Shown piece after piece: positions 5,686-27,071 of a stretch of DNA of 32,000 bases (within the stretch, counting starts at the first letter, position 1; the number at the start of each line of letters is the position of its first letter). Under the pieces are notes generated by a model that was not told the DNA's origin, did not search any database, and saw nothing but the letters and a program-made list of their open reading frames with translations. The position numbers were made by a program, and so were the translations under genes. The stretch lies in the NCBI GenBank assembly GCA_048939465.1, contig JBHLPL010000002.1, forward strand, positions 5,608-37,607, read 5' to 3'. Origin of the DNA: Promethearchaeota archaeon. Lineage in GTDB: Archaea > Asgardarchaeota > Odinarchaeia > Odinarchaeales > JBHLKK01.

Positions 5686-6090
5686 ATGACAAAAGTTCTT
5701 TTGGTTAGTGGAAAGCGGAAGACCGCGATTGCAAGAGCTACAATTCGCAAGGGCAAAGGAATGGTGCGAATAAACAATGTCCCGCTTCAGATCTATGGCT
5801 CTGAACTTGCTAGATCGAAGATTATGGAACCGCTGCTGATAGCAGGAGACGACATAACCAAGAAGATTGATATTCATGTAAGAGTCCACGGTGGAGGCTA
5901 TATGGGTCGGGCAGATGCTGTAAGAACCGCGATTGCGCGAGGACTGGAAAGCTGGTCAAAGGATGTCAAACTGAGAGAGAATTTCATTCGGTATGACAGA
6001 ACAATGCTTGTAGGCGATTCTCGAAGAACAGAACCAAAGAAATTTGGAGGACACAGCGCAAGAGCTAGAAAGCAGAAATCATATAGGTGA
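5686..6090 (+). CDS. rps9: 30S ribosomal protein S9 (uS9)
   Basis: [39 protein letters not shown]. Confidence 0.97.
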
Positions 6091-6255
6091 ACTGTCCTTA
6101 GCTTCCGCAAGGGATTTGCTCCCTCGCTCCTTGAAATGCCAACAGGTCTTCTTTCGGAGCGATGAACACTCTGTGACTGTGGTACAGCTGCGCTTTCGAT
6201 CACGCAACCTAAGAGCCTGTTACGCATATTAACTTCCTAGCTCCCAAGGTCATAG
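6087..6255 (-). mobile_element. Degenerate tnpB 3' tail plus right end (copy C4)
   Basis: Minus strand reads VNMRNRLLG (cf. INIGRRLLG at 31360) and ends GAGGGAGCAAATCCCTTGCGGAAGCTAAGGACAGTTCAC; terminal TTCAC overlaps the rps9 TGA. Confidence 0.7.
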
Positions 6256-6608
6256 ATCTTAACCTCAAAGACGAAGGGGATATTCAAACGCAATGGAATC
6301 CATCCCAACGCCTATGCCGAGGTCTTCTTGAGAAGGGCAGACGAAGCATGAATTGACGATTTCTTTTCACTTAGTTTTGGTTGGAGGTAAACTCCATTTC
6401 TTGGGGCTACTCCAGAATTGGTAATTTTCCCCTTCAAATCGCTAGGATCCTTTTTGCCTTACTTTGCGTTCAAACAGGGGCGACAAAAAGAGAAGCCTCG
6501 AAATTGAGACCGACAAAAAAGGCGCCTTAAATAAGCAATCTCTTAGGAGAATAGAAAAGCCGTACAATCATTTATTAGGATTCTTGAGGGGTCATAAATT
6601 AGTGGAGG

Positions 6609-6857
6609 ATGAAAGCATTGAAAGTTATTAGCATAAACATTCCAGAGAAATATATCTATGAGCTAGAGGAACTAGTAAGGCAGGAATTCTACTTGAGTAG
6701 AAGTGAAGCTATTAGAGCTGCAGTTAGAGATCTCCTCAAACGTGAACTCTGGATGGCCGGACAAGCGATCTTGGCAACTGCGCCAGCCCCGATTGAACGT
6801 GAGCAGACAACATCCGGCGAACAATTAATTGACGGAAAAGTTATCCTTAAAACCTAA
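6609..6857 (+). CDS. Ribbon-helix-helix (CopG/Arc/NikR-like) DNA-binding protein
   Basis: VISINIPEKYIYELEELV..YLSRSEAIRAAVRDLL; SD GGAGG. Confidence 0.85.
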   Translation: MKALKVISINIPEKYIYELEELVRQEFYLSRSEAIRAAVRDLLKRELWMAGQAILATAPAPIEREQTTSGEQLIDGKVILKT

Positions 6858-6902
6858 CGAATCGCGTTTGCCGAGTGATTCCTTTTTGATTTGTCAAGAA
6901 AA

Positions 6903-6917
6903 GAAAAATCTTTAAAA
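6903..6917 (+). promoter_or_regulatory. Putative BRE/TATA promoter of rpoN
   Basis: GAAAAATC-TTTAAAA about 50 nt upstream of the start. Confidence 0.45.
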
Positions 6918-6971
6918 GGCAGATTTGTTCATCTCCATTGACATGTTCTAATATAATGGAGAATGATTTAC

Positions 6972-7184
6972 ATGATAATCCCTGTACGTTGTTTCACCTG
7001 CGGAAAAGTCATTGGTGATAAATGGGAGGAATTCAAGAAAAGGGTAATAAAGCAAAATGAAAGACCCGACCGAGTTTTAAATGATCTGGGAATTAAACGT
7101 TACTGCTGCAGAAGAATGTTTATTTCTCACGTGACCGTGGACAAGGAAGCAAGAGAGCTGATAGATGAAATACTGAAATTTTAA
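6972..7184 (+). CDS. rpoN: DNA-directed RNA polymerase subunit N (Rpo10)
   Basis: [20 protein letters not shown]; ATG 6972 chosen over 6963 by SD spacing. Confidence 0.96.
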
Positions 7185-7230
7185 ATACTTGTTTTACAAG
7201 CTTTCTTGAGTAGCCTGGAGGTGAAAGCTA

Positions 7231-7866
7231 ATTTCAGAAACCACTCCAGAGAAAACTGAGGAAGAAGATCTTCTAGTACCCTTGGACAAGTATCTTGCCA
7301 ACGGCATTCATATCGGGACTCAAGTCAAAACAAAATCTATGAGACCATTTATTTATCGGGTCCGTCCAGATGGTCTCTATGTGCTTGACGTCAAGAAGAC
7401 TGATGAGAGAATAAGAATAGCGGCCAAATTTCTGGCCAGATATAAACCGGAAGAGATCATAGTAATATCTGCAAGGCAGTATGGCCAGAAACCAGCCGAG
7501 AAATTTTGTGAATTAACTCGGGCAACGCCCATGATTGGACGATTTATACCGGGATCACTGACTAATCCTACCTCAAAGAACTACTTAGAGCCAGGCATCA
7601 TCATGGTAACGGATCCTAGAGCAGATAATCAAGCCGTAAAGGAGGCTGTCAAAACTAGATTGCCGGTCGTCGCCCTGTGTGATACCGATAGCAGCGCGAC
7701 AAACGTCGATTTGGTTATTCCAACAAATAATAAAGGACGTAAGGCGCTCTCGGCAGTTTACTGGATTTTGGCTAGGCAACTTCTGCGGGAACGCGGAGAA
7801 ATTCCGCCTGACGCCGAGTTATCCGCTTCGATTGAGGATTTTCAGGCCCATCTAAGAAGGGCGTAG
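7231..7866 (+). CDS. rps2: 30S ribosomal protein S2 (uS2); probable ATT start
   Basis: LLVPLDKYLANGIHIGTQ, GRFIPGSLTNP, DLVIPTNNKGRKAL; conserved N-terminus lies upstream of TTG 7282; GGAGGTG is 7 nt before ATT 7231. Confidence 0.95.
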   Translation: MSETTPEKTEEEDLLVPLDKYLANGIHIGTQVKTKSMRPFIYRVRPDGLYVLDVKKTDERIRIAAKFLARYKPEEIIVISARQYGQKPAEKFCELTRATPMIGRFIPGSLTNPTSKNYLEPGIIMVTDPRADNQAVKEAVKTRLPVVALCDTDSSATNVDLVIPTNNKGRKALSAVYWILARQLLRERGEIPPDAELSASIEDFQAHLRRA

Positions 7867-7951
7867 GTTTTGGACTCCTGTCCTGACACCTAATAAAAAG
7901 GTTATTAAATCTCTTGATAGATATCCTTCTCCACCGTGAAGTGGGTGTAGA

Positions 7952-8929
7952 ATGTCAAAGATCACTTTTTCGGCCCCAGGTAAGTGCATACTAACGGGAG
8001 AACACAGCGTTGTTTACGGCACGCCCGCTATAGTCACAGCCCTTGATATACGGGCGTATTCAGCAGCAGAACCAACAAATGACGATCAGATCACCATAAC
8101 AGGATCAAATCTCGGAATTACCGGCATCTTTCCTAATTCTCTTGAGGCTACACCAGAAGTCGATTCTAAGACATTATCGGTGCTTAAACCGATTTGGACA
8201 GCTTGCTGCAAGACACTTGAGAAAAAGAACAAGAAAGTTGGACTAAAGGTTGAGGTAAATTCTGAAATACCTCTTAGTGTTGGGCTCGGGTCTTCCGCAG
8301 CCATTGCTGTCTCATCAGTAGCCGCCGTCGCCCATGCTTCAGGCATTTCGCTTACGAAAGAAGAGATATCAAGCATTGCTTTTGAGGCAGAGAAAGTAGT
8401 GCATGGAACGCCTTCTGGAGTGGACAACTCTGTTGCAACCTTTGGGGGAGTCATGATGTACGAACAAGGAGAAATTGAGTACCTAGACGTTAAGAGTCCA
8501 ATACCACTAGTGATCGGAAACACGTTAAAGGAGAGAAACACCGGAGAGTGGGTAGAAAAAGTCCGACATCGTCACGACAGACACCCCACAGTGATCGATA
8601 GTGTGATAAAGGCAATAGCCGACCTAACTAGAAAGGCAAAGATTGCAATTATAAACGGCGATTTAAGAACTCTTGGAGAATTAATGGATATTAACCAAGG
8701 ACTGCTATATTCTTTAGGGGTTTCAACAGATGACCTAGACCGGTTAATTTATGTAGCACGTAAGGCAGGAGCGCATGGGGCGAAGCTTACGGGAGCCGGC
8801 GGGGGAGGATGTATAGTCGCACTCTCTTCTCATAAGAATCAGCATGCAATTGCTGCAGCTATAGGAAAGGCAGAAGGCGAGCCCATCATAACAAAATTCT
8901 CACAACAGGGAGTTAGAATTGAGAAATAG
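7952..8929 (+). CDS. mvk: Mevalonate kinase
   Basis: APGKCILTGEHSVVYG, PLSVGLGSSAA, HGTPSGVDN, GAKLTGAGGGG. Confidence 0.95.
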   Translation: MSKITFSAPGKCILTGEHSVVYGTPAIVTALDIRAYSAAEPTNDDQITITGSNLGITGIFPNSLEATPEVDSKTLSVLKPIWTACCKTLEKKNKKVGLKVEVNSEIPLSVGLGSSAAIAVSSVAAVAHASGISLTKEEISSIAFEAEKVVHGTPSGVDNSVATFGGVMMYEQGEIEYLDVKSPIPLVIGNTLKERNTGEWVEKVRHRHDRHPTVIDSVIKAIADLTRKAKIAIINGDLRTLGELMDINQGLLYSLGVSTDDLDRLIYVARKAGAHGAKLTGAGGGGCIVALSSHKNQHAIAAAIGKAEGEPIITKFSQQGVRIEK

Positions 8930-10829
8930 ACCGATTATTCTAAAACTAGGCGGTAGTGTAATCACAAGCAAGAATGAATTATTTAAGGCAAAACCTGAAG
9001 TTGTAGACCAGATTGCCAAAGAGGTCGCGTCAGCAAAGCGTAAAAATCTGGTTATAGTCCATGGCGGCGGATCGTTTGGTCACCCCGTGGCCAAAAAATA
9101 TAAAATACATAAAGGCTTCCGCCACCCAAATCAAATAATGGGATTTTCAGAAACACACAAGGCTATGGAACAACTCAATCAAATAGTAATCGGCGCATTC
9201 CTAAGACAGAGAATCCCTGTTATTTCAATTCCTCCATCAAGCTGCGTCACCACAAACCGTGGCATAATTACAGTGTTCAACATTCCGGTAAGGGAGTACC
9301 TTAAGAAGGGCTTTATCCCCGTGATCTATGGAGATGCAGTCATAGACGAAGAATGGGGCATGGCTATCCTTTCGGGAGACCAGATTGTGAAATATCTCGC
9401 GATGCATCTAGAAGCCAGAAGAGTAATTTTCGGTGTTGATGTTAATGGAATCTTCACAGCAGACCCTAAGCAGAACCAAGATGCAAAACTCATTCGCAGG
9501 ATCACACCTAGGAATTTTGATCAGATTCTGTCCAGCTTAGAGACCAGTGATGTGGGCGATGTGACTGGTGGGATGGCGGGAAAAATGAAAGAACTCGTAG
9601 AAATAGCAAAGAGGGGCATAGAAGTAAGCATTATAAACGCTACCAAATCTAAAAATGTGGAATCCGCGTTAACAGGAAAAGATGTTTCTGGTACGCATGT
9701 TAGTGGTTGGGAACGCAAAGTGAAAAAAGCGCCAGTAGAGCCAAGAAAACTGGATCACATAAGGATGTGTTTGGAGAAATCTGTTCAAGCAAGAAATAAG
9801 ACTGCTGGACTGGAAGATGTTGAGCTAATCCATAATGCAATACCTGAAATATCAAAAAAGGATGTTAATCTTGGTGTAAACTTCCTCAATTATGATCTAG
9901 ACGCGCCAATCATTATTGCAGCAATGACTGGGGGGCATCCTGTTGCAAAAAGGATTAATGAGACATTAGCGAAGGCATCAAAAGAATTGAATATTGGATT
10001 GGGTGTTGGAAGTCAGAGAGCTGCCCTAGAAGACCCGGAGCTAGCTGATACATTCAGAGTTGTCCGTGAAGTCGCACCGGAGGCGTTCATCATAGGAAAT
10101 CTCGGTGCTCCCCAGCTCTCCAGAGGGTACGATTTAGAGGAGATAGAAAAAGCCATAAAGATGATAGACGCAAATGCAATAGCTGTGCACCTAAACACAT
10201 TGCAGGAAGCAATCCAACCGGAAGGAGAAACTGATTTTTCAGGGGTTGTTAGTGCATTTAGGAGGATTTCGGATAAGATTGATATCCCAGTAATCGCAAA
10301 AGAGACGGGTGCAGGGATAGCAAGGGAGGAAGCAGAGACTCTTGAAAAGGCTGGAGTTACTGCTATCGATGTAGGGGGTGCGGGGGGAACTAGCTGGGCG
10401 GGAGTGGAAACGCATCGGGCAGCTGAGAGCGGGGACGGGCTGAGAACTCGCATAGGAAGGACTTTCTGGGACTGGGGCATACCTACTGCAGTAAGTACAT
10501 TCGAGGTAGCTCAGTCAACAGGACTGCCAGTAATAGCTACCGGCGGAGTACGCTCAGGTCTTGACGCAGCAAAGCTAATAGCTCTGGGCGCAAGTGCCGT
10601 TGGCGTTGCCTTCCCGTTGCTCCGACCGGCTTATGGAGGGGATGTAAACGAGGTGATTAATACTCTCGATACAATGATAGAAGAACTAAGAATTACCATG
10701 CATTTGGTTGGAGCTAAGACAATCGACGAATTGAAAAGCGCAAGGGCAATTATCAGTGGAAAGACTGGTCGATGGCTTCAGCTCAGAGGCTATGAAGTTT
10801 CCGGATTCGCAAATCGAATAATAGAATAG
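8919..10829 (+). CDS. ipk-fni: Fusion of isopentenyl phosphate kinase and type 2 isopentenyl-diphosphate isomerase
   Basis: N-domain LKLGGSVIT, HGGGSFGH, SGD, DVTGGMAGK; C-domain RKLDHI, MTGG, GVGSQR, KETGAG, GGTSWA, ATGGVRSG; one 636-aa ORF. Confidence 0.9.
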   Translation: MRNRPIILKLGGSVITSKNELFKAKPEVVDQIAKEVASAKRKNLVIVHGGGSFGHPVAKKYKIHKGFRHPNQIMGFSETHKAMEQLNQIVIGAFLRQRIPVISIPPSSCVTTNRGIITVFNIPVREYLKKGFIPVIYGDAVIDEEWGMAILSGDQIVKYLAMHLEARRVIFGVDVNGIFTADPKQNQDAKLIRRITPRNFDQILSSLETSDVGDVTGGMAGKMKELVEIAKRGIEVSIINATKSKNVESALTGKDVSGTHVSGWERKVKKAPVEPRKLDHIRMCLEKSVQARNKTAGLEDVELIHNAIPEISKKDVNLGVNFLNYDLDAPIIIAAMTGGHPVAKRINETLAKASKELNIGLGVGSQRAALEDPELADTFRVVREVAPEAFIIGNLGAPQLSRGYDLEEIEKAIKMIDANAIAVHLNTLQEAIQPEGETDFSGVVSAFRRISDKIDIPVIAKETGAGIAREEAETLEKAGVTAIDVGGAGGTSWAGVETHRAAESGDGLRTRIGRTFWDWGIPTAVSTFEVAQSTGLPVIATGGVRSGLDAAKLIALGASAVGVAFPLLRPAYGGDVNEVINTLDTMIEELRITMHLVGAKTIDELKSARAIISGKTGRWLQLRGYEVSGFANRIIE

Positions 10830-10837
10830 ATAAAAAT

Positions 10838-10852
10838 CGAAAGCTTTTAAAA
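10838..10852 (+). promoter_or_regulatory. Putative BRE/TATA promoter of rpl7ae-rps28e
   Basis: CGAAAGC-TTTTAAAA in an AT-rich gap. Confidence 0.45.
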
Positions 10853-10940
10853 TTATTAAAATGTAGAAGTAAGATTATTACAGATTTCAGATTACTGCAA
10901 TGATGAATGATGAGGGTGTATCCCGAAGGAGGTGTTTCTA

Positions 10941-11312
10941 CTGTCAAAGCCTATTCATGTTCGCTTTGAAGTACCTGAGAAACTGGCAGATAAGGCATAC
11001 AAAGCAATAGAGATAGCCAGAGACACAGGAAAAATCAAAAAGGGAAGCAATGAAGCCACAAAGGCCATAGAACGAGGAACAGCGAAGCTTGTTGTAATAG
11101 CCCGAGATGTGGAGCCGCCGGAAGTTGTTGCCCACATTCCTTTTCTCTGTGAAGAGAAGAAAACTCCCTATATCTATGTGCCAAGCAAAGCGAAACTGGG
11201 GGTTGCTGCGGGAATCGACGTCGCTGCATCAGCAATAGCTATGGTTGAGACGGGAGAGGCAGAGTCTTTGATCAAGGAGATAATTAAGGAAGTCGAAGGG
11301 ATTAAGAGGTAG
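10941..11312 (+). CDS. rpl7ae: Ribosomal protein L7Ae (eL8); start CTG 10941 or GTG 10932
   Basis: [39 protein letters not shown]; the GTG at 10932 lies inside the SD GGAGGTG. Confidence 0.96.
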
Positions 11313-11319
11313 AGACTGA

Positions 11320-11535
11320 ATGGAACCAACAGAGGCAGGCATCCCAGCAGAGGTCGTCCAGATAATTGGACGTACAGGAGTTACCGGCGAGATCATTCAA
11401 GTTAGAGTGCGTGTGCTATCAGGGCAAGACAGGGGACGCATTATTACGAGGAATGTGAAAGGGCCAGTAAGGCTAGGGGATATCCTTATGCTTAGAGAGA
11501 CCGAAAGAGAAGCCAGGAAAATTAGAGCTAGATAG
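11320..11535 (+). CDS. rps28e: 30S ribosomal protein S28e
   Basis: [35 protein letters not shown]. Confidence 0.97.
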
Positions 11536-11542
11536 TCTCCTT

Positions 11543-11725
11543 CTACTTGCTTTGGTATGCTGTGGTCCACTTCAGTTTCCTTGGTTTTCTCTTCAAGGCA
11601 AGGCTATTCTTGCGGCACTTGGATGAGCAAAAGTACTTGAAACTTCCATCAGCTTGAACATACATCATGCCTGTCCCAGGTTCAATATCGTGACCACAAA
11701 ATAAACATTTTTGTACTTTTACCAT
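11543..11725 (-). CDS. rpl24e: 50S ribosomal protein L24e
   Basis: CLFCGHDIEPGTGMMYV, FCSSKC, RKPRKLKWT; ATG 11725 follows GGAG. Confidence 0.96.
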   Translation of the reverse strand: MVKVQKCLFCGHDIEPGTGMMYVQADGSFKYFCSSKCRKNSLALKRKPRKLKWTTAYQSK

Positions 11726-11827
11726 TTGCTCCACTCTCTGCCATTTTAGGTAGACGATTCTAGGACTATTTATTTGTCCTTTTAACTCTATCGGCAAAAA
11801 TCTGAAGTCTCATCTTGACCATCTCAA

Positions 11828-11860
11828 GGAGACTCCATCCGATAGGGCGGAGTAGTTTAC
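11828..11860 (+). mobile_element. Isolated IS200/IS605-like right-end hairpin
   Basis: GGAGACTCCATCC-GATA-GGGCGGAGTAGTTTAC; hairpin matches 19006-19026 and terminal GGAGTAGTTTAC matches 18746-18757; TTTAC overlaps the ndk TAA. Confidence 0.7.
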
Positions 11861-12522
11861 GTTAGAATAGACGCTACGATTGCATTAACCAGCGCCTCAA
11901 CATCCTTTGGAGAAGAGTCGAGACATTCCTTTTTCAATAATTCAACCATTTCCCTCTTTAAATGCCCAGTTCTATCTCTAGTATTTACGATTTTCCTACA
12001 GATTTCCCTAAGTTCCGATGTGTAGTTTTGCTTATTGCGACCCCACTTTGAGATATACCCATTAATTCTTTCCTTTACTAGTTCAGGATCTTCCATCTCT
12101 AAACCGGCCATATCGTGCCAGATTCCTATCTCAATTAAGGCGGTTTTTGGCGAATCAGAGGCGTGAGCGATGTTTATTCCGCCCCAGATCCCGTATTTTC
12201 CTCTTATAGTATTCGACTCGGCTTTATGGCTAAATGTGTTTCCAAGTAACCCTCTTATTCGCTGAATTGCATCAACGCCTTCGATAATCATTGCAATAAC
12301 TGGTCCAACCTTGATAAACTCAACAAGACTATGGAAAAAAGGTTTATCCTTATGAACTTCGTAGTGCTTCTCCGCAAGTTCTTTGGAAGCTTTAAGCTCC
12401 TCAAAGGCTAGGATTTTTAGATCTTCTTGACCAATTAGCTCTTCTAAAACCTTGGTCCCAATATATCTCCTCATTGTTCCATCCGGCTTGATCAAAAACA
12501 ACGTTCTTTCGACGCCACTCAT
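11857..12522 (-). CDS. ndk: Nucleoside diphosphate kinase with a C-terminal extension of about 75 aa
   Basis: ERTLFLIKPDG, HYEVHKDKPFF, TIRGKYG, NIAHASDS (phospho-His). Confidence 0.92.
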   Translation of the reverse strand: MSGVERTLFLIKPDGTMRRYIGTKVLEELIGQEDLKILAFEELKASKELAEKHYEVHKDKPFFHSLVEFIKVGPVIAMIIEGVDAIQRIRGLLGNTFSHKAESNTIRGKYGIWGGINIAHASDSPKTALIEIGIWHDMAGLEMEDPELVKERINGYISKWGRNKQNYTSELREICRKIVNTRDRTGHLKREMVELLKKECLDSSPKDVEALVNAIVASILT

Positions 12523-12796
12523 CAGAACCACCCATTGACGTGGGCTACTAGGAGTATTTGATATATATTCTTTCTTTTTGTTTCAAACCTTTTGTACCAC
12601 CTCAAGCAAATGAGAGTTCCGCATTGGATTTGGGAATGGTCTTTGTGTTGATTTCGATTGCGCTTTCAGCCTTGATACTGGTCGCTCTAAAGAGAGTAGC
12701 ATAAGTTTAATTAGGTAACGTCAAATTCGTTAATCGATATATGCTAAAAGACGACATTCTTAAAGATCCTAGACGAAAAGTGGAGGATGAACCAAC

Positions 12797-14601
12797 TTGA
12801 TAAGACAACCCATTATATCGTTCTTGGGCCACATCGATGTGGGCAAAACAAGTCTCCTAGATAAGATAAGAGGAACAGTAGTTCAGCTTCGAGAGGCAGG
12901 GGGTATAATGTAGTAGCATAGACTACTCCATGCTAGACCCAGCATATCGGAGCTAGCTTCCTGCCCACTTCCGTTATAACAGCCATAGCAAAAGATCTTC
13001 TAAATCAATTCAAGATCAAAGTTACAATACCAGGATTGCTGGTTGTTGATAGCCCTGGGCATGCAGCATTTATGAACTTGAGAAGAAGAGCCGGGAGCGT
13101 CTGTGACATCGCCATTCTTGTGATTGATGTACTGGCAGGCTTTCAGCCTCAAACACACGAGTCCGTCAACATCCTGAAGGAGAGAAATACTCCGTTCCTG
13201 GTGGCGGCAAATAAGATAGATAGGGTTCCCGGATGGAAAGACAAAGAATCAACATCGTTCTTAGAATCTGTAAAGAAACAGGAAGAGTTTGTTAGGAAGA
13301 ATCTTGATCAGAAAATATACGAAATCGTTGGGGCCTTTTCAACAATAGGTTTTGAATCTGAAAGATTTGACAGAGTGGGAGATTTTACTAAGACCATCGC
13401 CATTGTGCCTACAAGTGCAAGAACTGGAGAAGGGATTGCAGAACTCCTGATGGTAATTGCAGGACTTACCCAACAATACATGATGAAACGTTTGGAGATT
13501 TCATCTGAAGGGGGCAGAGGAACAGTTTTGGAGGTCAAGGAGGAACCGGGGCTGGGAATTACCGTTGACACTGTTATCTATGATGGAGTGATCCACAAGG
13601 GAGACACCATCGTGGTAGGGAGCTTGGGTGATCCTATTGTAACTAAGATACGGGCAGTTCTGCTGCCAAAACCCCTTGATGAGATACGCGACCCCCGCGA
13701 ACGATTTGATCCTGTAAAGGAAGTTCAAGCAGCTGCAGGTATCAAGATAGCAGCACCTGCTCTTGAAGGGGCTATTGCTGGAGCCCCTTTGATTGTCGCG
13801 AACACAGAAAAGGAGATTGAAGAAGCAAAGAACGAAATATTGAGTGAGATTGAAAAGATCAGGATATCGACAGACAAAACAGGGATAATACTTAAGGCAG
13901 ACACGCTAGGTTCTTTAGAAGCTATTCTAAAATACTTCCAGGATCAAGGGATTGCAGTCAGAATAGCCGACGTTGGGGATATTTCAAAAAGAGACATAGT
14001 TGAGGCTGAAGTCGTTAAGGAACTTGATCCGCTTTCAGCGATTGTTCTTGGATTTAATGTCAAAGTACTGCCTGATGCCAAAGAGGAATCGGTTAAACAT
14101 GAAATTCCGATACTCCAAAACAGGATAATTTACCGATTGTTTGAGGAATATGACAATTGGCTATTTGAGAGGAGGGAAGAGCGAAAGAGAGAAGCATTGA
14201 AGACAGCCGTAAAACCAGGAAAGGTAAAAATCATTCCAGAATATATTTTTCGGCAAAGTAAGCCCGCGATCGTCGGTGTTGATGTTCTTAGCGGGCAAAT
14301 AGTCTCTCGGGTCAACTTGATAAAAGAGGATGGGAGCAGAGTAGGAACAATTCTTCAGATACAGGACAAAGGAGAAGTAATTCCTATTGCCAAGGCGGGA
14401 CAAGCTGTCGCCATTTCAATCAGGGGAGCCACCGTTGGTCGACAGATAAATGAGAATGACGTTCTATATGTCGATATGCCAGAAAGAGATGTCAGACTCT
14501 TCAAAGAACGTTTCAGAGACGAACTCTCTGTGGGTGAGTTGGAAGCTTTAGATGAATTAATCGAGATAAAGAGGAAATCAGATCCTACATGGGGTGCATA
14601 A
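12797..14601 (+). CDS. infB: Translation initiation factor aIF5B (IF-2); two exons 12797-12907 and 12937-14601, 591 aa after splicing
   Basis: Exon 1 (TTG) [36 protein letters not shown] joins exon 2 [19 protein letters not shown]; the ORF track shows only the part from 13036. Confidence 0.95.
12908..12936 (+). other. 29-nt BHB-type intron in infB mRNA
   Basis: Outer helix GGG/CCC, central helix GGUA/UGCU, bulges UA^A and AG^A, inner stem UG.AGUAG/CUACU.CA; contains in-frame TAG TAG; removal restores GGI-TQHIG. Confidence 0.88.
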
Positions 14602-15097: not shown

Positions 15098-15131
15098 TTC
15101 AGATATAATTGATGTCAAAAGGAGACAATAA

Positions 15132-16412
15132 ATGCCTAAGGCGAAAAAAATATCTGTGCCAGAAGCTGAAAAAAAGCAGTGTGAGGTAAATGTAGGGGTT
15201 GTTGGTCACGTTGATCATGGAAAAACAACGCTAGTTCAATCGATAAGCGGGGAGTGGACAGATCGTTACAGCGAGGAAATAAAGCGAGGCATATCCATAA
15301 AGCTGGGTTATGCCACCGCAGTTGTAGTTAAGTGTCCTAAATGCCCCCCGCCTCAATGTTATATGACCACTACCATGTCTGGTGGCACAACATGTCCTCA
15401 CTGCGGATCCGAGGTTGAGTTTCTTCGAAAGATTTCCTTTGTCGATGCCCCAGGACATGAAATACTTATGGCTACAGTAATTTCAGGCGCCTCATTAATG
15501 GATGGGGCGATGCTTGTTATTGCCGCTAATGAAGAGTGTCCGCAGCCTCAAACACGAGAGCACCTGGCTGCTCTGCAAATCACTGGTGTGGAAAGAATTA
15601 TAATAGTTCAGAATAAGATCGAGCTGATCTCAGAAAAAGAAGGAATCAATCATCACAAGCAGATAAAGGATTTTGTTAAGGGAACCATCGCAGAGAAAGC
15701 TCCAATAATCCCCACATCTGCGATATTTAAATCAAATATTGATTTGGTAGTTCAGGCTATTGAAGAATTTGTGCCAACACCGAAAAGACACGTAACCAAA
15801 CCACTGCAGATGTTTACGGCACGTTCATTCGATGTAAATAAACCTGGAACTACTCCAAGAAAGCTTGTTGGGGGAGTAATTGGAGGGGCGATAGTCCAAG
15901 GAAGAGTCGAGATAGGAGAGAAAATAGAAATCAAGCCAGGAATAAGGGTCGAAAAAGAGGGGGAAACAAACTACCAACCACTTGTTACAAAGGTCGTGAG
16001 TCTCAAGGCAGGAAACGCTTCCCTGAAGGAAGCTTATCCTGGTGGACTGATTGGCATAGGCACGAAAATCGATCCATCTGTTACCAAGGCAGACGGACTG
16101 GTTGGCAATGTAGCGGGAGCAAAAGGAACACTGCCTCCAGTACTTGACAAACTGACGTTCAAAGCACATTTAATGGAACGAGTCGTGGGATCGAAGGATC
16201 TTCTGAAAGTAAAAGACATAAAAGCAAAAGAGAGTCTGATGATTAATGTGGGAGCGGCAGCTACACGTGGGCACGTAATCAGTGTAAAGGGAGACAGTAT
16301 TGATGTGGAATTACGGAGACCGGTATGTGCAGATTCAGGGCAAAGAATGGCTGTGAGCAGACTTGTCAAAGGTAGATGGAGACTCATAGGCTGGGGGGAA
16401 CTGACAGCTTAG
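15132..16412 (+). CDS. eif2g: Translation initiation factor aIF2 gamma subunit
   Basis: GHVDHGKTT, RGISIKLGY, Zn ribbon, DAPGHE, QNKIE, WRLIGWG. Confidence 0.97.
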   Translation: MPKAKKISVPEAEKKQCEVNVGVVGHVDHGKTTLVQSISGEWTDRYSEEIKRGISIKLGYATAVVVKCPKCPPPQCYMTTTMSGGTTCPHCGSEVEFLRKISFVDAPGHEILMATVISGASLMDGAMLVIAANEECPQPQTREHLAALQITGVERIIIVQNKIELISEKEGINHHKQIKDFVKGTIAEKAPIIPTSAIFKSNIDLVVQAIEEFVPTPKRHVTKPLQMFTARSFDVNKPGTTPRKLVGGVIGGAIVQGRVEIGEKIEIKPGIRVEKEGETNYQPLVTKVVSLKAGNASLKEAYPGGLIGIGTKIDPSVTKADGLVGNVAGAKGTLPPVLDKLTFKAHLMERVVGSKDLLKVKDIKAKESLMINVGAAATRGHVISVKGDSIDVELRRPVCADSGQRMAVSRLVKGRWRLIGWGELTA

Positions 16413-16479
16413 AGCCTGCAGATATTTCCACGAAGAACGTTAGTCTTCGGGATCTATAAAAGACTGGAGGCGAGCAACT

Positions 16480-16905
16480 ATACTTTGTGTCTTGCTTGAT
16501 ACTAACTTCCTTATGATGTCAGGCCAATTTAAAATTAACATTTTTTCAGAGCTTGACCGCATTATACAAAGGAAATACGTCCCTGTGATTCTATCCGCTA
16601 CCGTCGAAGAGTTGTGGAAGCTTTTGGAAAATGAAAAACCTAAGATTCAGCAGCAAGCATCATTAGCCTTAAAAATGGTAGAGGGGTGCGAGGTGAGAAA
16701 GGCAGACCGTTTGCCTAATGAGAATGTAGATGATTTAATTGTGCGGTACGCTAAGGAAAGCAAATGCATAGTTTCCACAAACGACAGAGAACTCAGGAAA
16801 AAGCTACGGAGAAATCACATAGCGGTAATATATCTAAGGCAAAAGGCGTTTCTGGCTTTGGATGGGGATATTCCACAAAGCTTTAGAAGAGAGACACGTT
16901 TATAA
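16480..16905 (+). CDS. PIN-domain protein (Fcf1/Utp24-like); start ATA 16480 or TTG 16492
   Basis: LLDTNFLM, VDDLIV, VSTNDRELRKKLR; usual position after eif2g. Confidence 0.88.
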   Translation: MLCVLLDTNFLMMSGQFKINIFSELDRIIQRKYVPVILSATVEELWKLLENEKPKIQQQASLALKMVEGCEVRKADRLPNENVDDLIVRYAKESKCIVSTNDRELRKKLRRNHIAVIYLRQKAFLALDGDIPQSFRRETRL

Positions 16906-17006
16906 ATAAAAACCCCAAAAATGGCTCATTTAAATCTTGATAACTCATAAAGAACTGAAATCCCCCTAATTAGCTCAATTAGATTCTTGTGAGAGTGCGT
17001 CAACGC

Positions 17007-17609
17007 ATGTATAAGTTGATGGTTGTTAGAGACACTGTTCGTATACCTCCAAGGAGATTTAGCGAACCCATAGAGGAAGTGGCGTTAGAGATATTGCGAG
17101 AGGAGCACGAAGGAATGATGAACCCCGAATTAGGGTTCATAATAGCAGTAATTGAAGTAAAAAATACGGATGTTGGGAAGTTGGTGCCAGGAGACGGCGC
17201 TGCATTTCACGATGTAGAATTCTCAGTCTTAGTCTTCAAACCAGACTTGCACGAAGTAATTGAAGGAGAAGTAGTAGAAGTCGTTGACTTTGGCGCCTTC
17301 GTTCGCCTTGGTCCCATAGATGGGTTATGCCACGTCAGTCAAATCACTGATGATTACATAAACTATGATTCAAAAAGGTCAGCTCTCTTGGGAAAAGAAA
17401 CAGGAAGAATATTAACAATAGGCGATCGGGTTCGTGCACGAATAATTGCAATGAGTATTCGAGGAGGCGCGAGAAGCGGAAAATTAGGTCTAACAATGCG
17501 ACAGCCTTTCCTAGGAAAGTTGGAATGGATAGAGGACGATAGCAAGAAAGCAGCTGAAAAGAAGAAGGAAAAGAAGAAAGAGAAGAAAAAGGGAACCGAA
17601 AAGGCATAG
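17007..17609 (+). CDS. rpoE1: DNA-directed RNA polymerase subunit E' (Rpo7)
   Basis: RDTVRIPP, GDGAAFH, FGAFVRLGPIDGLCHVSQI, TMRQPFLGKLEWI. Confidence 0.97.
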   Translation: MYKLMVVRDTVRIPPRRFSEPIEEVALEILREEHEGMMNPELGFIIAVIEVKNTDVGKLVPGDGAAFHDVEFSVLVFKPDLHEVIEGEVVEVVDFGAFVRLGPIDGLCHVSQITDDYINYDSKRSALLGKETGRILTIGDRVRARIIAMSIRGGARSGKLGLTMRQPFLGKLEWIEDDSKKAAEKKKEKKKEKKKGTEKA

Positions 17610-17622
17610 GAAGGATGTATGG

Positions 17623-17811
17623 TTGGTTAAAGAGCGTGCATGCAGAACATGCAGGAAGATAGTATCCGGACAGCTATGTCCTCGTTGCAAGACCTATACA
17701 CTGTCTCAAGATTTTGCTGGATTAGTCATTATTCTGGATGCTGAAGGTTCACAGATTGCAGAGAAACTTAACATAATGGAGAGGGGAAAGTACGCCTTGA
17801 AGGTTCGCTAA
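17623..17811 (+). CDS. rpoE2: RpoE''/Spt4 transcription elongation factor
   Basis: RACRTCRKI..CPRC, GLVIILDAEGSQIA, GKYALKVR. Confidence 0.95.
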   Translation: MVKERACRTCRKIVSGQLCPRCKTYTLSQDFAGLVIILDAEGSQIAEKLNIMERGKYALKVR

Positions 17812-17812
17812 A

Positions 17813-18328
17813 TTGAAAGATCTGAGAATAACTCCTAAACTCCGTCGAGAATTGAAAAAGCCGCAAGGTATCTTACTAAAAGGATCTGCAGACACAAACA
17901 TACGGATAATTGAAGAACTAGTAAAATCTTCAAAACCTCCTAAACTGGTAACGGTTGGGGATGTGGTTACAAGCAATCTTACGGACGCAAACATATTGCC
18001 CGATCTATGCATCATAGATGGTAAGACCCTACGAGGCGGGTACAAGATCAAGCTTAAGACAAAGAAGAACATAAGATTGAAAAATCCCAAAGGAACTGTA
18101 AGCTCAGAGGCTTGGGAAGCAATTAGGAAGGCCATTTCCTCAGAAGTCAAGGTTGGGATAATAGTAGAGGGAGAAGAAGATCTGCTAACCATTCCAGCAG
18201 TCCTCTTGGCCCCGAATCGTGCTATTGTGATATATGGTCAGCCAGACATTGGAGTGGTGATCGTAAAGGTCGACGAGGAAAGCAAGAAACATTATCGAGA
18301 GTTAGCAGAGCAAATGGAGGAAATTTAA
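17813..18328 (+). CDS. DUF359 family GTP-dependent dephospho-CoA kinase
   Basis: ELKKPQG, VTVGDVVT, IIDGKTLR, NPKGTV, VEGEEDLL, YGQP. Confidence 0.88.
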   Translation: MKDLRITPKLRRELKKPQGILLKGSADTNIRIIEELVKSSKPPKLVTVGDVVTSNLTDANILPDLCIIDGKTLRGGYKIKLKTKKNIRLKNPKGTVSSEAWEAIRKAISSEVKVGIIVEGEEDLLTIPAVLLAPNRAIVIYGQPDIGVVIVKVDEESKKHYRELAEQMEEI

Positions 18329-18712
18329 TTGTCCATGAAAATTGACGTTATTTCGGAGAAGAAAAATCCCTTGCTAGGAAGAAACGAGATATATTTCGAA
18401 ATCTCTCATCCGAATAAAGGAAGTCCAATGAGGAAAAACATAAGGGAAAATTTGGCCTCGAGATACAAGGTGGATCTAGATTTGGTCTTCATACGTAGAC
18501 TTATGCCGGTTGCGGGAAAGCAGAAAATTAAGGGAACTGCAAGAATCTACGAAGATAAGGATCGAGCCGGACTTGTTGAAGCTAAGCACATAGTAAGCAG
18601 AAATCAGACAGAAGTAGAAGAAAAAGAGGAAGTAGAGAAGGAGAAGCCGAAGGAGAAGCCGAAGGAGAAGCCGAAGGAGAAGCCGAAGGAGAAGCCGAAG
18701 GAGAAGGGTTAG
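18329..18712 (+). CDS. rps24e: 30S ribosomal protein S24e with a (KEKP)n C-terminal tail
   Basis: KNPLLGRNE, GTARIYED, HIVSRN; conserved gene order. Confidence 0.94.
   Translation: MSMKIDVISEKKNPLLGRNEIYFEISHPNKGSPMRKNIRENLASRYKVDLDLVFIRRLMPVAGKQKIKGTARIYEDKDRAGLVEAKHIVSRNQTEVEEKEEVEKEKPKEKPKEKPKEKPKEKPKEKG
18637..18706 (+). repeat. Perfect 12-nt tandem repeat (GAAGGAGAAGCC) x5 plus a 10-nt partial copy
   Basis: Read directly; encodes KEKP repeats. Confidence 0.97.
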
Positions 18713-18745
18713 AAGAAACTTGGGGAGTAATAGGTGGTAGTTTCT

Positions 18746-19044
18746 GTAAACTACTCCTCCCTCGCAGAAGGGGCTCATGACTGTGCTTGACCGCAATTCC
18801 CTCCCGAGCTCCGGTTTCATCACAAGTCAAATCAAGGGGCGATTTGCAGCGCCCCAGCCCGGTGATCCGTGCATAGCGCCGAGCTTAAGAGTTTTCCTCG
18901 CCTATCCTCGCACGGGTCATTGACCGTTTCCGCCTCCAAGAGAGGTGTCCCTTCAGACCTATTAGTATATATAGCACAAACTCAGTTAAAGATCCCTCAA
19001 TTCCTCTCCGCCCTTTCGGACGGAGTCCCCCAGAGGTGGTTCCT
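18746..19044 (-). mobile_element. About 300-bp IS200/IS605-like mini-element (copy B)
   Basis: Left-end hairpin ACTCCGTCC-GAAA-GGGCGGAG; TATATATA spacer; right end GAGCCCCTTCTGCGAGGGAGGAGTAGTTTAC; collinear with 22841-23145 (+). Confidence 0.8.
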
Positions 19045-19242
19045 ACGAGCGTCAAAGAATATTATACGGTATCAAAGGACGGAAAAATTGCTAGATTGAA
19101 GAAGAATTGTCCCAGATGCGGACTTGGCACATTCATGGCAGAGCATTCTGATCGATGGAGTTGCGGCAAGTGTGGTTGGACTGAATTCAAGAAAGGGGAG
19201 ATTGAAGACCACGAAAAAGAGGAAAAACTAAATCAGTCTTAA
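19036..19242 (+). CDS. rps27ae: 30S ribosomal protein S27ae; start GTG 19036 or ACG 19045
   Basis: [30 protein letters not shown]. Confidence 0.95.
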
Positions 19243-19336
19243 TCCATAATAGATAGGATAGAATACATAATAGATAAGACGGATAGGGTATATTTCTTTG
19301 AAAGGCTCTGACTTCTTCCGGCACAATTCTCGGGCG

Positions 19337-19936
19337 TCAAGCAGCAGCTTTGGTTACCGGCTCGGAAACTAATTTACTCTTACGCACTTCGCATTTCCTT
19401 AACGGCATAATCTTTTTGCTTTCATTATAGATTTCAGATCCAATCTTTCCGAGCACACATTCATGTACAAATTGCTGGAAAGTCAGTTCCTTTGCCTTTC
19501 TATAAACAGTTTCTTTCATTATTTTGCGGATTCTACGCTCTTGACTGGTCTTGGCTCTATTATGCGTAAATGCTATTGTAGAGATAATTAAGCGATACCT
19601 GTCTTTGGTCATAATACTGAATCGACCGTCAATCCTGGTACTTCCTCGGCGAACTAAACTCCTGAGGTAATCCCGGGCAAAATTGTGACCTTTGAATATG
19701 GTATAAGCTGATTTATCTTTTACTTCTTTAATCTGGAAGAGAAGTTGTATGTGTCCAAGAGTCATATCGCCTGTAATATCATACAGCGTAGCCTCTACAA
19801 CTCTACCTATCAGCCTGTCAGGATCGTTTGTGACGGTTTCACCTATTTCGATGTCTCCGAGATATTTAGGCGAGTATATAGTGAACCAAGATTTAGTTCT
19901 CCATGTATCCTTGACTTTGCTTCGAGACATGGTCAT
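19337..19936 (-). CDS. rps3ae: 30S ribosomal protein S3ae (eS1)
   Basis: KVKDTWRTKSWF, FKGHNFARDYLRSLVRR, KIMPLRKCEVRK. Confidence 0.97.
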   Translation of the reverse strand: MTMSRSKVKDTWRTKSWFTIYSPKYLGDIEIGETVTNDPDRLIGRVVEATLYDITGDMTLGHIQLLFQIKEVKDKSAYTIFKGHNFARDYLRSLVRRGSTRIDGRFSIMTKDRYRLIISTIAFTHNRAKTSQERRIRKIMKETVYRKAKELTFQQFVHECVLGKIGSEIYNESKKIMPLRKCEVRKSKLVSEPVTKAAA

Positions 19937-20002
19937 TCATCTCCTTAGGAATCATGGTAGACGAAAAATCAAATAAAAACCTTTCTTAAAAGTTGACTGC
20001 TT

Positions 20003-20221
20003 TTACTTAATATCTTCCACCGATTTGATGGTGGCCAATAGACTGTCAAGTGAAGTCATGACCTTATCGATGTTTTCTTCATAATGGGCGGATATCTCAA
20101 GTTTTCTTCCAACGCACACAACTTCTACCCTGCGATCGTTTCGATAATGATGTTGCAGGCTTTTTGTGACAGCTCTAGTCCTTTTTTCGGTTGCGCAGTC
20201 CAGCGTTAGCTTTATTTTGAT
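20003..20221 (-). CDS. pcc1: KEOPS subunit Pcc1 (absent from the ORF track; no ATG/GTG/TTG start)
   Basis: Open frame IKIKLTLDCATEKRTRAVTKSLQHHYRNDRRVEVVCVGRKLEISAHYEENIDKVMTSLDSLLATIKSVEDIK*; size, pattern and position (rps15-recJ-pcc1-rps3ae) fit Pcc1. Confidence 0.75.
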   Translation of the reverse strand: MKIKLTLDCATEKRTRAVTKSLQHHYRNDRRVEVVCVGRKLEISAHYEENIDKVMTSLDSLLATIKSVEDIK

Positions 20222-21684
20222 TCCTTGCGTTTTTCGTCCCCCATTTGCTCCCTAATAATCTTTTCCAGATGAAAAACTAATTTCTCTTCACTTCCTGCGG
20301 GGATTAAAGCACCCGCAGCAGCATCGTGTCCTCCTGCTGTGGCTTCTTTTAGTTTAATCTCCTCTATAACTTGGCTTAGAGCCAATCCAAGATTAACACC
20401 GCTCTCAACTAGCTCTTCCCCTGCACGCAACGATACTTTTACACCTTCCGGGTCTGAATAGGCGAAGGAAACAATGACTTTGTCAGACTTCAATATTCGT
20501 GCGTGCAAGGCAACAGATGCAACAGTGCCAATTATTCGTTCATCAACAACATTTTCGCCATGAAAGACCTGAAGAAACTCAGTTTCCTTAACGCGACCTG
20601 GCTGTGTAAGCCATTCGATATATTTTGATATTTTCTGGCGATACTCTACAAGTAATTGCTGTGCTTCCATCAGGGCATTTACTCTGTCGCCAAGACATAT
20701 TGCCACACCCACCCCAGGATGTCTGATTCTACCACAGGCGTTCAGAAGAGAGGCAAATTCTCTGGCATCCCTCAAAGGCGTTCCTTTTTCCTCTCTGAGT
20801 AGAGTGTACACATTCCCAACAATACTCTCAGCCTTATCAGAATCTATACCTTGTTGCAACATGTACTGAATAAGGGCGCTATTCAGTTGGATTTTCTCAT
20901 CTTGTGAGAGATCAGAGAGAGTTCTCCAATGATCGTCTTCTTTCAGTTTTATTCCAGCCTTGGACAAGAACATGAAGCATCTTTCCCCGCTACCTGTCAA
21001 ACCGGGTATGAATGGATCTGTCGTGTATTGCAGTGCAACGTGAATTGGCCTGGTTTCACGTCCAAAGATGGATAAATCCTTCTCTACTCTAAGAACCCCC
21101 GATTCCACACCATCCTTGACGATGATGTCCCCATTTATGCCAAAAAAATCTCGGTGTTCTGCTTTATCCTGTATATCACCTACAGCTCCGACGACAGCGA
21201 GATGAGCAAGATCCCTATTCTCCTTGTTAATGCTTCTGGCCACGAGGTAGGAAACCCCAGCCCCGCTTACTTCCTGACCTCCGTTTATCCCGTATAAATG
21301 GGGGTTTACATGAACCAATCCCGGAAAATCACCTGCGTTCCCCATCTCATGATGATCTAGTATTATTACTGAACTTTCAGAAAGATAGTCTTTAATAGAA
21401 TTTAGCTGAGCAGAACCAAGATCGGAAAAAACATAGAAGGATCGGTTTTCGTCTGCTAGTTCCTTGATGATTTGTGGATTGATTTGCTTCACCACTCGAA
21501 TGTGAAAGGCCATACCAAGCCGTAATAATGTCAATCCAATTACTCCTGCCGCTGCTATTCCGTCTGCGTCATAGTGGGAAGTGATCCGAACTATCCCTTT
21601 TTCATCCGCCCATTCTTGGAGCTTCTCCCCAGCTCTCTTGGCAAGTTTTAGAAAGCTATCAAGATCTCTACTCACCAATCTCAA
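20212..21684 (-). CDS. recJ: DHH-family RecJ-like exonuclease (GAN / Cdc45-related)
   Basis: SHYDADG, SDLGS, LDHH, GAVGD, AREFASLLNACGR, GGHDAAAG; follows rps15. Confidence 0.9.
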   Translation of the reverse strand: MRLVSRDLDSFLKLAKRAGEKLQEWADEKGIVRITSHYDADGIAAAGVIGLTLLRLGMAFHIRVVKQINPQIIKELADENRSFYVFSDLGSAQLNSIKDYLSESSVIILDHHEMGNAGDFPGLVHVNPHLYGINGGQEVSGAGVSYLVARSINKENRDLAHLAVVGAVGDIQDKAEHRDFFGINGDIIVKDGVESGVLRVEKDLSIFGRETRPIHVALQYTTDPFIPGLTGSGERCFMFLSKAGIKLKEDDHWRTLSDLSQDEKIQLNSALIQYMLQQGIDSDKAESIVGNVYTLLREEKGTPLRDAREFASLLNACGRIRHPGVGVAICLGDRVNALMEAQQLLVEYRQKISKYIEWLTQPGRVKETEFLQVFHGENVVDERIIGTVASVALHARILKSDKVIVSFAYSDPEGVKVSLRAGEELVESGVNLGLALSQVIEEIKLKEATAGGHDAAAGALIPAGSEEKLVFHLEKIIREQMGDEKRKESK

Positions 21685-21717
21685 TCATCCGAAAATTCCT
21701 TTAAGATTCCTTAGAGC

Positions 21718-22173
21718 CTATCGTACCATCAGTACAGCCTTATCACGACTATATTTCCAATCAGAAGGAAGGATGCCCTTTTTCTTATAATACTTGGAGA
21801 GACGATGGATCTTGCTCTCTATTAGTTGTAGCCCCCGCTTTGAGTGAAGATCTTTCGGATGTTCCTCCAGATGCCTTCTCAAGTTCACAGAACTCTGCAA
21901 CAAGTCAATAAGATCTTCAGGTAATGAAGGAAGTAATTCACGTTCTTTTAGAATCTGAGTCACTGACTTACCAGCAGCCAACTTAACTAAGGGAACCCCG
22001 TATTGATCCCTCATAATATTACCTATCATTGAGGGGGGCTCCCCCGCTTTGGCCAATTTGACTACCAGAGCCTCTACTTCATCAGCGTTTCTCATAAACC
22101 ATTCAGGAGACTTTGTTCGAGGAGGTCTGGTGGATTTTGATTTCCCTTTCCTACGGGTGTGCATCCTTGCCAT
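21718..22173 (-). CDS. rps15: 30S ribosomal protein S15 (uS15)
   Basis: [40 protein letters not shown]. Confidence 0.97.
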
Positions 22174-22208
22174 ATTACTCCACCGCCAAAATCAAGATAC
22201 TTGAGGGC

Positions 22209-22222
22209 TTTTAAATTTTCTG
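22209..22222 (-). promoter_or_regulatory. Putative BRE/TATA promoter of rps15
   Basis: CAGAAAA-TTTAAAA on the minus strand about 36 nt upstream of ATG. Confidence 0.45.
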
Positions 22223-22276
22223 ATTTATGATCTACAGCCAGTTCAGTATGTTAAAACCATTAAGAAGGCTTAAACC

Positions 22277-22840
22277 TCATCGAGCCGAGAAGTTCTTCTT
22301 TAACCAATCTGCAAACTTGTACAAAACCTTCTTTCTGTGAGAAAGTTTGTTTTTTTCATCAAAACCCATTTCAGCATAGGTTCTACCGTCACCCTCCAGC
22401 GGGACAAAAATAGGATCGTATCCCCAGAGTTTACCCCGTTCTTCTTCGGAAATTGTACCTTCTACATTGGCAGAAATGCATGTAGATACTCGATCATGAG
22501 AGAAGGCGATAACTGACTTAAAGACTGCCTTCCTTGTTGCGACTCCCTCCATCAACCTTAGAATCCCCTTATTCCCTATAGTTTTGAAGACGTACGAAGA
22601 GTACGGGCCAGGAAAGCCGTTAAGTGCTTCGATAAACAGCCCGGTATCTTCCACAAAAACTGGTTTTTTGATCTTTTTAGAAACTAGAGACACACTGTAT
22701 GAGGCTATTTTCTCTAGACTTTCATGTTGAGGTTCAATCCTCTCGATATCCAGATGTTCAATCTCAAAGCCTATCTTTCCCAATATTTCAGATGCCTCTC
22801 TTATCTTATTCTTATTACTTGTAGCAAAAAGCAGCTTCAT
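22277..22840 (-). CDS. rdgB: dITP/XTP pyrophosphatase (Ham1/RdgB)
   Basis: FATSNKNK, EDTGLFIEALNGFPGPYS, WGYDPIF, KNKLSHR. Confidence 0.95.
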   Translation of the reverse strand: MKLLFATSNKNKIREASEILGKIGFEIEHLDIERIEPQHESLEKIASYSVSLVSKKIKKPVFVEDTGLFIEALNGFPGPYSSYVFKTIGNKGILRLMEGVATRKAVFKSVIAFSHDRVSTCISANVEGTISEEERGKLWGYDPIFVPLEGDGRTYAEMGFDEKNKLSHRKKVLYKFADWLKKNFSAR

Positions 22841-23145
22841 TTGATCGCCTCGAGGAAACTCCGACCAAAAGGACGGAGAGGGATTAAGGAGTCGATGAAT
22901 GCTATTGGGACATACGCACCAATAGATTTGAAGTCACACCTCTCTTCGATGTGGAAACAGCTAATGACGGATGAGGGTGGGCGCCATGGACTGATAGCCA
23001 CTGTATCGCCTGACGCTATATGCAGATTACTGGGTTCAGACGCTTTGGACTTGCTGCCAATCTGGCCTGTGATGCGACCAAAGCCCATTTGGGAATTAAG
23101 GTCCAGCATAGTCATAAACTCCTTCACTAAGATGGAGTATTTCAT
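22841..23145 (+). mobile_element. 305-bp IS200/IS605-like mini-element (copy A) inserted at the bud32/rdgB overlap
   Basis: Follows TTCAT (22836-22840) and ends in TTCAT (23141-23145); left-end hairpin ACTCCGACC-AAAA-GGACGGAG; collinear with copy B. Confidence 0.82.
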
Positions 23146-27020: not shown

Positions 27021-27071
27021 AGAAATCTCCTTTTTTCTCTTAGAAAGAATTGAAGGCAGTTAAATACTCTT

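Follow-up and report, generated by a model that had tools for sequence, protein, structure and literature searches.

The window analysed here, a stretch of 32,000 nucleotides (G000:C69:5608-37607) from the 1.96 Mb, 152-contig assembly of a Promethearchaeota archaeon of the order Odinarchaeales, harbors miniature transposable elements whose right ends supply the stop codons of three convergent host genes, rps9, ndk and bud32, all in the same register. These elements are non-autonomous IS200/IS605 derivatives of 47 to ~350 nt that resemble palindrome-associated transposable elements (PATEs). The replacement of host stop codons is a consequence of the known insertion rule of this family and not a new mechanism. 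Very probably, the target and end motifs that define this rule bring the miniature elements onto stop codons and rebuild the stop upon insertion, with a selection filter probably adding to the effect.

The three sites were analyzed by direct reading of the sequence, together with the open reading frame (ORF) listing and Pfam matches. The pentamers opposite the gene 3′ ends, TTCAC at 6087-6091, TTTAC at 11856-11860 and TTCAT at 23141-23145, are the last five bases of the respective elements. The stops of the convergent genes share the register NN/R-TRA-A, where the slash marks the element boundary; in all three genes, only the first two bases of the last sense codon lie outside the element, which contributes the third base and then the stop. 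The preliminary description of this DNA had reported such an overlap in a single register, and both the coordinates and the register proved exact on re-reading. The gene for ribosomal protein S9 (rps9, 5686-6090, + strand; Pfam PF00380, Ribosomal_S9, E = 6e-38, profile positions 1-121 of 121) ends in TAT AGG TGA, with the TGA at 6088-6090, and encodes the native C-terminus ...KSYR; the terminal SYR followed by a stop is found in 12 relatives. The transposon-encoded motif (TEM) at this site, TTCAC (6087-6091, − strand), has the complement GTGAA, that is, the third base of the last arginine codon (AGG) plus TGA. The ndk gene (11857-12531, − strand; Pfam NDK, E = 2e-39) ends in ACG TAA (stop at 11857-11859), both its last codon and its stop being completed by the element, and the gene for a bud32-type kinase (23142-23771, − strand; kinase/RIO matches) has AGA TGA as its 3′ end, the stop (23142-23144) being part of the element terminus. 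In total, the window contains seven element copies, three of which are in the stop register (binomial P ~0.006, given an expectation of 5.7% of non-disruptive TTYAY sites).

All three stop-codon elements belong, as true copies, to repeat families that occur throughout the genome and have sharp boundaries. Downstream of rps9 lies a gene-less PATE-like element of 254 nt (6087-6340, − strand), with the right end ...GGACAGTTCAC at 6087 and the left end CTGCCCTTCTCAAGAAGACC... at 6340, next to the left flank TTCGT; its right end was identified with an iterated right-end profile and its left end by homology to copies on contigs C40 and C10. This element carries a subterminal hairpin, and its site is empty in the congeners G001 and G002. 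The ndk element (11814-11860, + strand; target CTCAT at 11809-11813) is a terminal-only form of 47 nt, consisting of the start of the left end, one hairpin and the tail of the right end, and ~10 similar 47-nt copies are present in the genome. The junction between bud32 and Ham1 is filled by a divergent 305-nt element of the D family (22841-23145, + strand; nhmmer E = 1e-51 to the D-family profile), whose target, TTCAT (22836-22840), is complementary to the start ATGAA of the Ham1/ITPase gene (22277-22840, − strand; ATG at 22838-22840, adjoining the left end of the element).

BLAST and profile searches of the whole genome yielded ~70 right ends and 72 left ends. The families comprise the D family (~300 nt; left flank TTCAT; right end ...GGAGTAGTTTAC), the E family (~350 nt; left flank TTTAT; right end ...AGTTCAC), a family of ~220 nt with the same right end, ...AGTTCAC, as the element on contig C2, and the terminal-only family (47 nt; left flank varying by copy; right end TTTAC or TTCAC). 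The left flanks, that is, the targets, are TTCAT in 20 and TTTAT in 18 cases, whereas the right termini are TTCAC in 33 and TTTAC in 20; as pairs of transposon-adjacent motif (TAM) and TEM, TTTAT/TTCAC is found in 14 elements and TTCAT/TTTAC in 8. These flanks and termini bear out the earlier proposal that a motif common to target and terminus enables an element to land on gene boundaries. Alignments of the copies contain no terminal inverted repeats and instead show imperfect subterminal hairpins at both ends, DNA folding placing the left-end hairpin (CTCCGTCC-GAAA-GGGCGGAG) ~19 nt inside the element and the right-end hairpin 7-8 nt from the end. The genome encodes a single TnpA of the Y1 (HUH) type (PF01797, E = 7.5e-37; G000:C105:1180-1545), which sits in a full-length TnpA+TnpB element (C105:997-2845) with ends of the same kind as those of the miniatures. 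Genes for TnpB (PF07282) are present on C2 (element 25974-27281), C105 and C70, with a remnant on C55, and positions 158-300 of the D family match the region that follows this tnpB remnant. Because the miniatures share ends and 3′ parts with the TnpA/TnpB elements of the same genome, they qualify as PATE-like, non-autonomous members of IS200/IS605. A scan of the window against Rfam gave no family at gathering score. The right-end motif is strongly over-represented in several Asgard genera.

Evidence on the history of the stop codons comes from unoccupied sites in genomes of the same genus (G001, G002) and of a sister genus (G003-G006). In all five genes tested (ndk, rps9, rpl14, PTH2 and POR-alpha), the stop of the relatives is located at the position now held by the stop that the element provides. 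The regeneration of the stop that had been suggested from the window alone is substantiated by the empty sites of the congeners, in which the original stop lies inside the target pentamer. At the ndk locus, G002 reads CTA ACA TGA GAC TTC AG and the genome under study (G000) reads CTA AC, followed by the 47-nt element and ATGAGACTTCAG; relative to G002, the insertion is base-exact, 3′ of CTCAT, with nothing duplicated or lost. The relatives end ndk with ACA TGA or ACA TAA and have AGA TGA at the corresponding place of rps9. For PTH2 and POR-alpha, which are located on other contigs, joining the flanks in G000 restores the sequence of the relatives, including the stop, with base precision, and in the case of POR-alpha also the ATGA overlap with the next gene. 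The base-exact empty sites of ndk, PTH2 and POR-alpha demonstrate insertion 3′ of a 4-5-nt target without target-site duplication.

A signature of this exchange is retained in the third base of the last sense codon, which is A in the relatives but G in G000 in each of the five genes (AGA to AGG, ACA to ACG, GTA to GTG, AAA to AAG and ATA to ATG), as expected if the final C of the element took the place of the final T of the target. Only in PTH2 (ATA to ATG) is the C-terminal residue altered, from Ile to Met. Seven other stop-register genes were checked and Pfam domains were identified in all of them; the S9, L14 and PTH2 proteins match the respective profiles to the last position, and their C-termini are therefore native in length. 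The bud32-Ham1 junction is occupied in all three species of the genus by elements with homologous left ends that differ in length and in their right ends, and all three provide a stop (TGA, TGA and TAA) in one common register; in the sister genus (G003-G005), bud32 and Ham1 are 5-7 nt apart, with no element in between.

Two further loci outside the window illustrate the range of such junctions. In locus L054 (G000:C139:2539-5570), three D-family elements occupy three consecutive gene junctions, and the start of POR-alpha lies at the left flank of one of them, its stop, TAG (from TCTAC), being provided by the right end of the next. Within the main ribosomal operon, a 94-nt element between rpl14 and rpl24 (locus L059, G000:C69:50908-51001) gives the stop of rpl14, adjoins the ATG of rpl24 and has taken the place of the native 16-nt spacer, Shine-Dalgarno sequence included, that is present in the congeners.

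The following scenario would account for these observations. The single Y1 TnpA of the genome would move the miniatures in trans; these retain both hairpin ends, and the longer forms also retain the omega-RNA scaffold of the TnpB elements. Insertion occurs 3′ of the TAM (TTCAT or TTTAT) without duplication, and the inserted element ends in a similar TEM (TTTAC or TTCAC), both motifs reading, on the other strand, R-T(G/A)A-A, that is, one base and then a stop codon. At a target that complements NNA-TRA-A, insertion parts the gene from its stop, and the TEM places G-TRA-A there. Given that TAM and TEM both complement a stop, insertion exchanges a stop for a stop and alters the wobble base alone: the last sense codon changes from A to G at its third base, nearly always synonymously, and a stop follows. 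If the pentamer also holds the ATG of the next gene, as in an ATGA overlap, this ATG stays beside the left end. With both frames intact, such copies would be retained in a compact genome, ribosomal operons included, and insertions into coding sequences and promoters would be lost. We infer that the enrichment at stop codons described below arises from purifying selection that keeps harmless copies, rather than from a wider preference of TnpA. The ribosomal sites occupied are rps9, rpl14 and the S24e/S27ae junction, and motif-based survival inside ribosomal operons, as previously proposed, would fit this picture. Replacement of the displaced stop by the element end gives a concrete, sequence-level reason why IS200/IS605 miniatures can reside in packed and essential operons of this compact archaeal genome and leave its genes unbroken.

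The enrichment was assessed against gene calls from a simple codon-usage ORF picker (2,065 genes, 87% coding), with every TTYAT site outside the elements classified accordingly: 10,623 sites fall within genes, 2,295 are intergenic, and 127 (127-134 across counts) are the complement of the stop of a called gene in the element register. Among 71 right ends, 37 face a convergent gene and 11 supply its stop; in two further convergent genes, the frame continues for four codons within the element (offset −15), and the other convergent stops are scattered 1-813 nt from the right ends, with a spike at the overlap register. The share of right ends in register, 11 of 68, compares with 5.2-6.3% of the non-disruptive TTYAT/TTYAY sites (P = 0.0008-0.003); for sites with a convergent neighbor only, it is 11 of 35 vs 13-14% (P = 0.004-0.008). 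Other motif definitions, including TT(C/T)A(C/T), put the expectation at 3.0-6.3% (P from 6e-6 to 0.003), and under a looser ORF criterion 13 of the 71 right ends are in register. The preliminary description had called for right ends to be compared with all TT(C/T)A(C/T) sites; the comparison with intergenic TTYAT/TTYAY sites reveals a 2.4- to 3-fold enrichment at stop codons, and the opposite outcome that it had envisaged, no enrichment beyond intergenic survival, was not observed. The excess is real but moderate. Nine of 30 sampled right ends are in register in the congeners G001 and G002 (some of the loci are orthologous), and in two genomes of another Asgard family the respective counts are 4 of 14 (G045) and 1 of 20 (G095); where a long convergent frame extends to a right end, it nearly always stops at the register offset. 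A sample with one locus per genome from a phylum-wide search for the pattern consisted mostly of chance matches and does not enter these counts.

The enrichment bears directly on the simplest alternative, namely that the elements insert at any TTYAT, intergenic copies survive, and the regeneration of the stop adds no advantage. Some overlaps are indeed to be expected, since both pentamers necessarily contain a stop on the other strand, and the 127-134 free TTYAT sites in register show that such targets are available; moreover, the start-codon side (see below) is fully accounted for by the motif (P = 0.08). However, 16% of the right ends are in register vs the 5-6% expected, or 31% vs 13% on the convergent side, and the congeners show similar or higher shares. 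Furthermore, the insertion point lies two bases inside the coding sequence, so that a strict filter for intergenic copies would remove exactly those in the stop register. Mere coincidence of motif and survival is therefore improbable. Another possibility, which we regard as unlikely, is that the excess originates at insertion, with the transposase or the access to single-stranded DNA showing a preference, beyond the pentamer, for gene ends or ATGA junctions. The excess itself and the repeated hits at junctions, with three consecutive ones on C139 and bud32-Ham1 occupied in three species, are compatible with such targeting. Against it, the flanks show no extended conserved context past the pentamer, target choice in IS200/IS605 is known to involve pairing with 4-5 bases (according to the searched passages of PMC10055086), and the bud32 occupation in three species may reflect one old insertion, given the homologous left ends. 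Finally, the elements could have landed near or inside gene 3′ ends that were only later moved to the stop in the element, as the two genes that read four codons into an element might indicate. Such secondary adoption is highly improbable: in five of five genes tested, the element-free relatives stop at the identical codon position, and the Pfam matches run to the last residue in S9, L14 and PTH2.

Several observations weigh against stop replacement combined with selection as the full explanation. The excess is only 2.4- to 3-fold, ~84% of the copies have no stop overlap, and the enrichment relies on a home-made gene caller and a null model from one genome. Two of the five empty sites are not base-exact on the left flank, rps9 lacking 4 nt and rpl14 lacking 20 nt; later small deletions are the only explanation that we can offer for the missing bases. 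Within the genus, no empty allele of the bud32 site is present, and its probable history is therefore deduced from the sister genus. The data are compatible with selection and with target preference alike, and the two are inseparable here.

The preliminary description had also pointed out that the motif can contain ATG or GTG. A start-codon side does exist (13 of 62 left flanks), but an enrichment beyond the expectation for TTCAT does not: start codons are found at 12 of 73 left flanks overall (P = 0.51) and at 10 of 21 TTCAT flanks (P = 0.08), with no enrichment over TTCAT sites. The TTCAT pentamer is also the complement of ATGAA, and ATGA gene overlaps, 78 of which are free according to the gene calls, are therefore natural landing sites. 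An ATGA junction is filled exactly by four elements, and contact with a boundary codon, on one side or both, is found for 20 of 62. In the D, E and 220-nt families, stops are unusually scarce on the antisense strand, where both non-fusing frames terminate at or on the ATG downstream. Across the bud32-Ham1 element, an antisense ORF of 102 codons (22837-23145, − strand) has no Pfam match; its ATG overlaps the TGA of bud32 and its TGA overlaps the ATG of Ham1, forming two ATGA overlaps. The open antisense frames have a median of 84 codons vs 65 in dinucleotide shuffles. A selected antisense ORF that bridges the flanking genes is thus not clearly supported: the shuffles already contain long frames, and the openness of the antisense frames is mostly explained by base composition.

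In the full-length copies, tnpB runs from the left end to the right end, and the omega-RNA should have the same direction; a putative guide read from the right end would hence be complementary to the final codons of the respective gene (rps9, ndk or bud32) and antisense to the 3′ end of the host gene, as far as the geometry goes. TnpB guides at stop-register sites would, in general, be complementary to the 3′ ends of host genes. In the bud32 copy, the end motif TTCAT is the family's own target, so that an active nuclease would find both a target motif and a match at its own locus, which argues that this copy is probably no longer functional as a guide cassette. It is conceivable, if rather doubtful, that TAM and TEM (TTYAT/TTYAC) have been shaped for safe harbors and that guides against essential genes create an addiction-like or regulatory tie between element and host. 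Under the addiction form, precise loss of the element would be costly, as TnpB would cut the restored gene end of the rps9 or rpl14 type; under the regulatory form, the guides would let the element tune its host gene.

Most components of this system are familiar from other IS200/IS605 elements. In Geobacillus, Meers et al. (2023; PMC10055086) describe the TAMs TTCAT and TTTAT, similar TEMs at the right end, recognition of both through pairing with subterminal DNA guide sequences, and gene-less omega-RNA cassettes in the ISGst families of Geobacillus stearothermophilus; the targets found here are those of ISGst5 and ISGst2. The PATEs of Haloquadratum walsbyi include terminal-only forms of 52 bp (PMC3119063). 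The elements described here share with PATEs and ISGst elements the lack of inverted terminal repeats, subterminal palindromes, the absence of target duplication, a pentamer target by the left end, the TEM, mobilization in trans and terminal-only forms of ~50 bp. The passages of PMC3119063 and PMC10055086 that were searched mention neither the complement of TAM or TEM as a stop nor copies on host stops; in contrast to these accounts, to the extent that they were covered, empty sites and a genome-wide test document the stop relation here for an Asgard archaeon.

A published precedent is provided by the GTAG repetitive extragenic palindromic (REP) sequences, which are moved by a Y1 enzyme related to TnpA, the REP-associated tyrosine transposase (RAYT), and the terminal tag of which also serves as the stop codon of a host gene (Di Nocera et al., 2013; PMC3733652). 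In both cases, a repeat moved by a TnpA-type enzyme supplies a host stop codon with its terminus. However, REPs are palindromes of 20-40 bp with a GTAG/CGTC tag and a domesticated RAYT, whereas the elements in question derive from TnpB elements, keep the guide-RNA scaffold, are 47-350 nt long and end in TTYAC; assignment to REPs or bacterial interspersed mosaic elements (BIMEs) was accordingly rejected. The MIRUs of mycobacteria (mycobacterial interspersed repetitive units) are a looser analog, at start codons: as summarized in PMC12548453, they are likewise mobile repeats at operon gene junctions that preserve frames and coupling, but they rely on an internal ORF with −4 nt coupling to the start codon, whereas the elements of this genome rebuild the stop with their terminal pentamer and show no clear selection for an internal antisense ORF. 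IStrons, which combine a group I intron with an IS605-type transposon (PMC4227781), similarly render insertion into genes harmless but splice out of the RNA, in contrast to stop-codon replacement at the DNA level. Our literature searches found no published statement of the stop-codon relation for IS200/IS605 ends, only the REP analog. Thus, the element type and the use of a repeat terminus as a host stop (GTAG REPs) are already known, and the stop relation of IS200/IS605, as deduced here from sequence comparison, was not found in print.

The remaining copies in the window lie outside the stop register. A 299-nt D-family element between the S24e and S27ae genes (18746-19044, − strand) has no stop overlap, its right end being 33 nt beyond the S24e stop and its left end adjoining the old start of S27ae. 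Beside this left end (19030-19050), the native S27ae start ATG (ATG AGT GTC AAG in G001) is ACG in G000, and the sole in-frame start of S27ae (19036-19242, + strand) is the GTG at 19036, within the element; the D-family element may now supply the start codon of S27ae. For annotation, gene ends and starts at element-filled junctions consist partly of transposon sequence, with the last residue changed in one protein. A 350-nt E-family element (1272-1621, + strand; target TTTAT, end TTCAC) has its right end 61 nt from the stop of a convergent alcohol dehydrogenase gene, again with no stop overlap. The right end of another copy (...GGAGGGTAGTTCAC; 31174-31213, − strand) is located 4 nt upstream of the start of a co-directional gene, and a decayed fragment is present near 2829-3174 (− strand). 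In four copies (window 6341-6345 and 19045-19049, G000:C25 and G000:C10), the left flank is TTCGT or CTCGT instead of TTCAT or CTCAT, one and the same transition in the old target, which is expected to block excision.

With regard to neighboring genes, two ORFs at the start of the window (394 and 365 aa) were considered as candidates for TnpB and rejected, as Pfam identifies them as an aminotransferase and an alcohol dehydrogenase. The rpl24e gene (11543-11726, − strand; Pfam L24e, E = 3e-22), which follows ndk and converges on rps28e (11320-11535, + strand), was overlooked by the simple gene caller. In the aIF5B gene (start near 12797), a 29-nt hairpin-forming insert (12909-12937, + strand) breaks the frame and interrupts the conserved motif GGITQHIGAS (GGT ATA A, insert, CC CAG CAT ATC GGA GCT AGC); it looks like a micro-intron of the tRNA type (bulge-helix-bulge).

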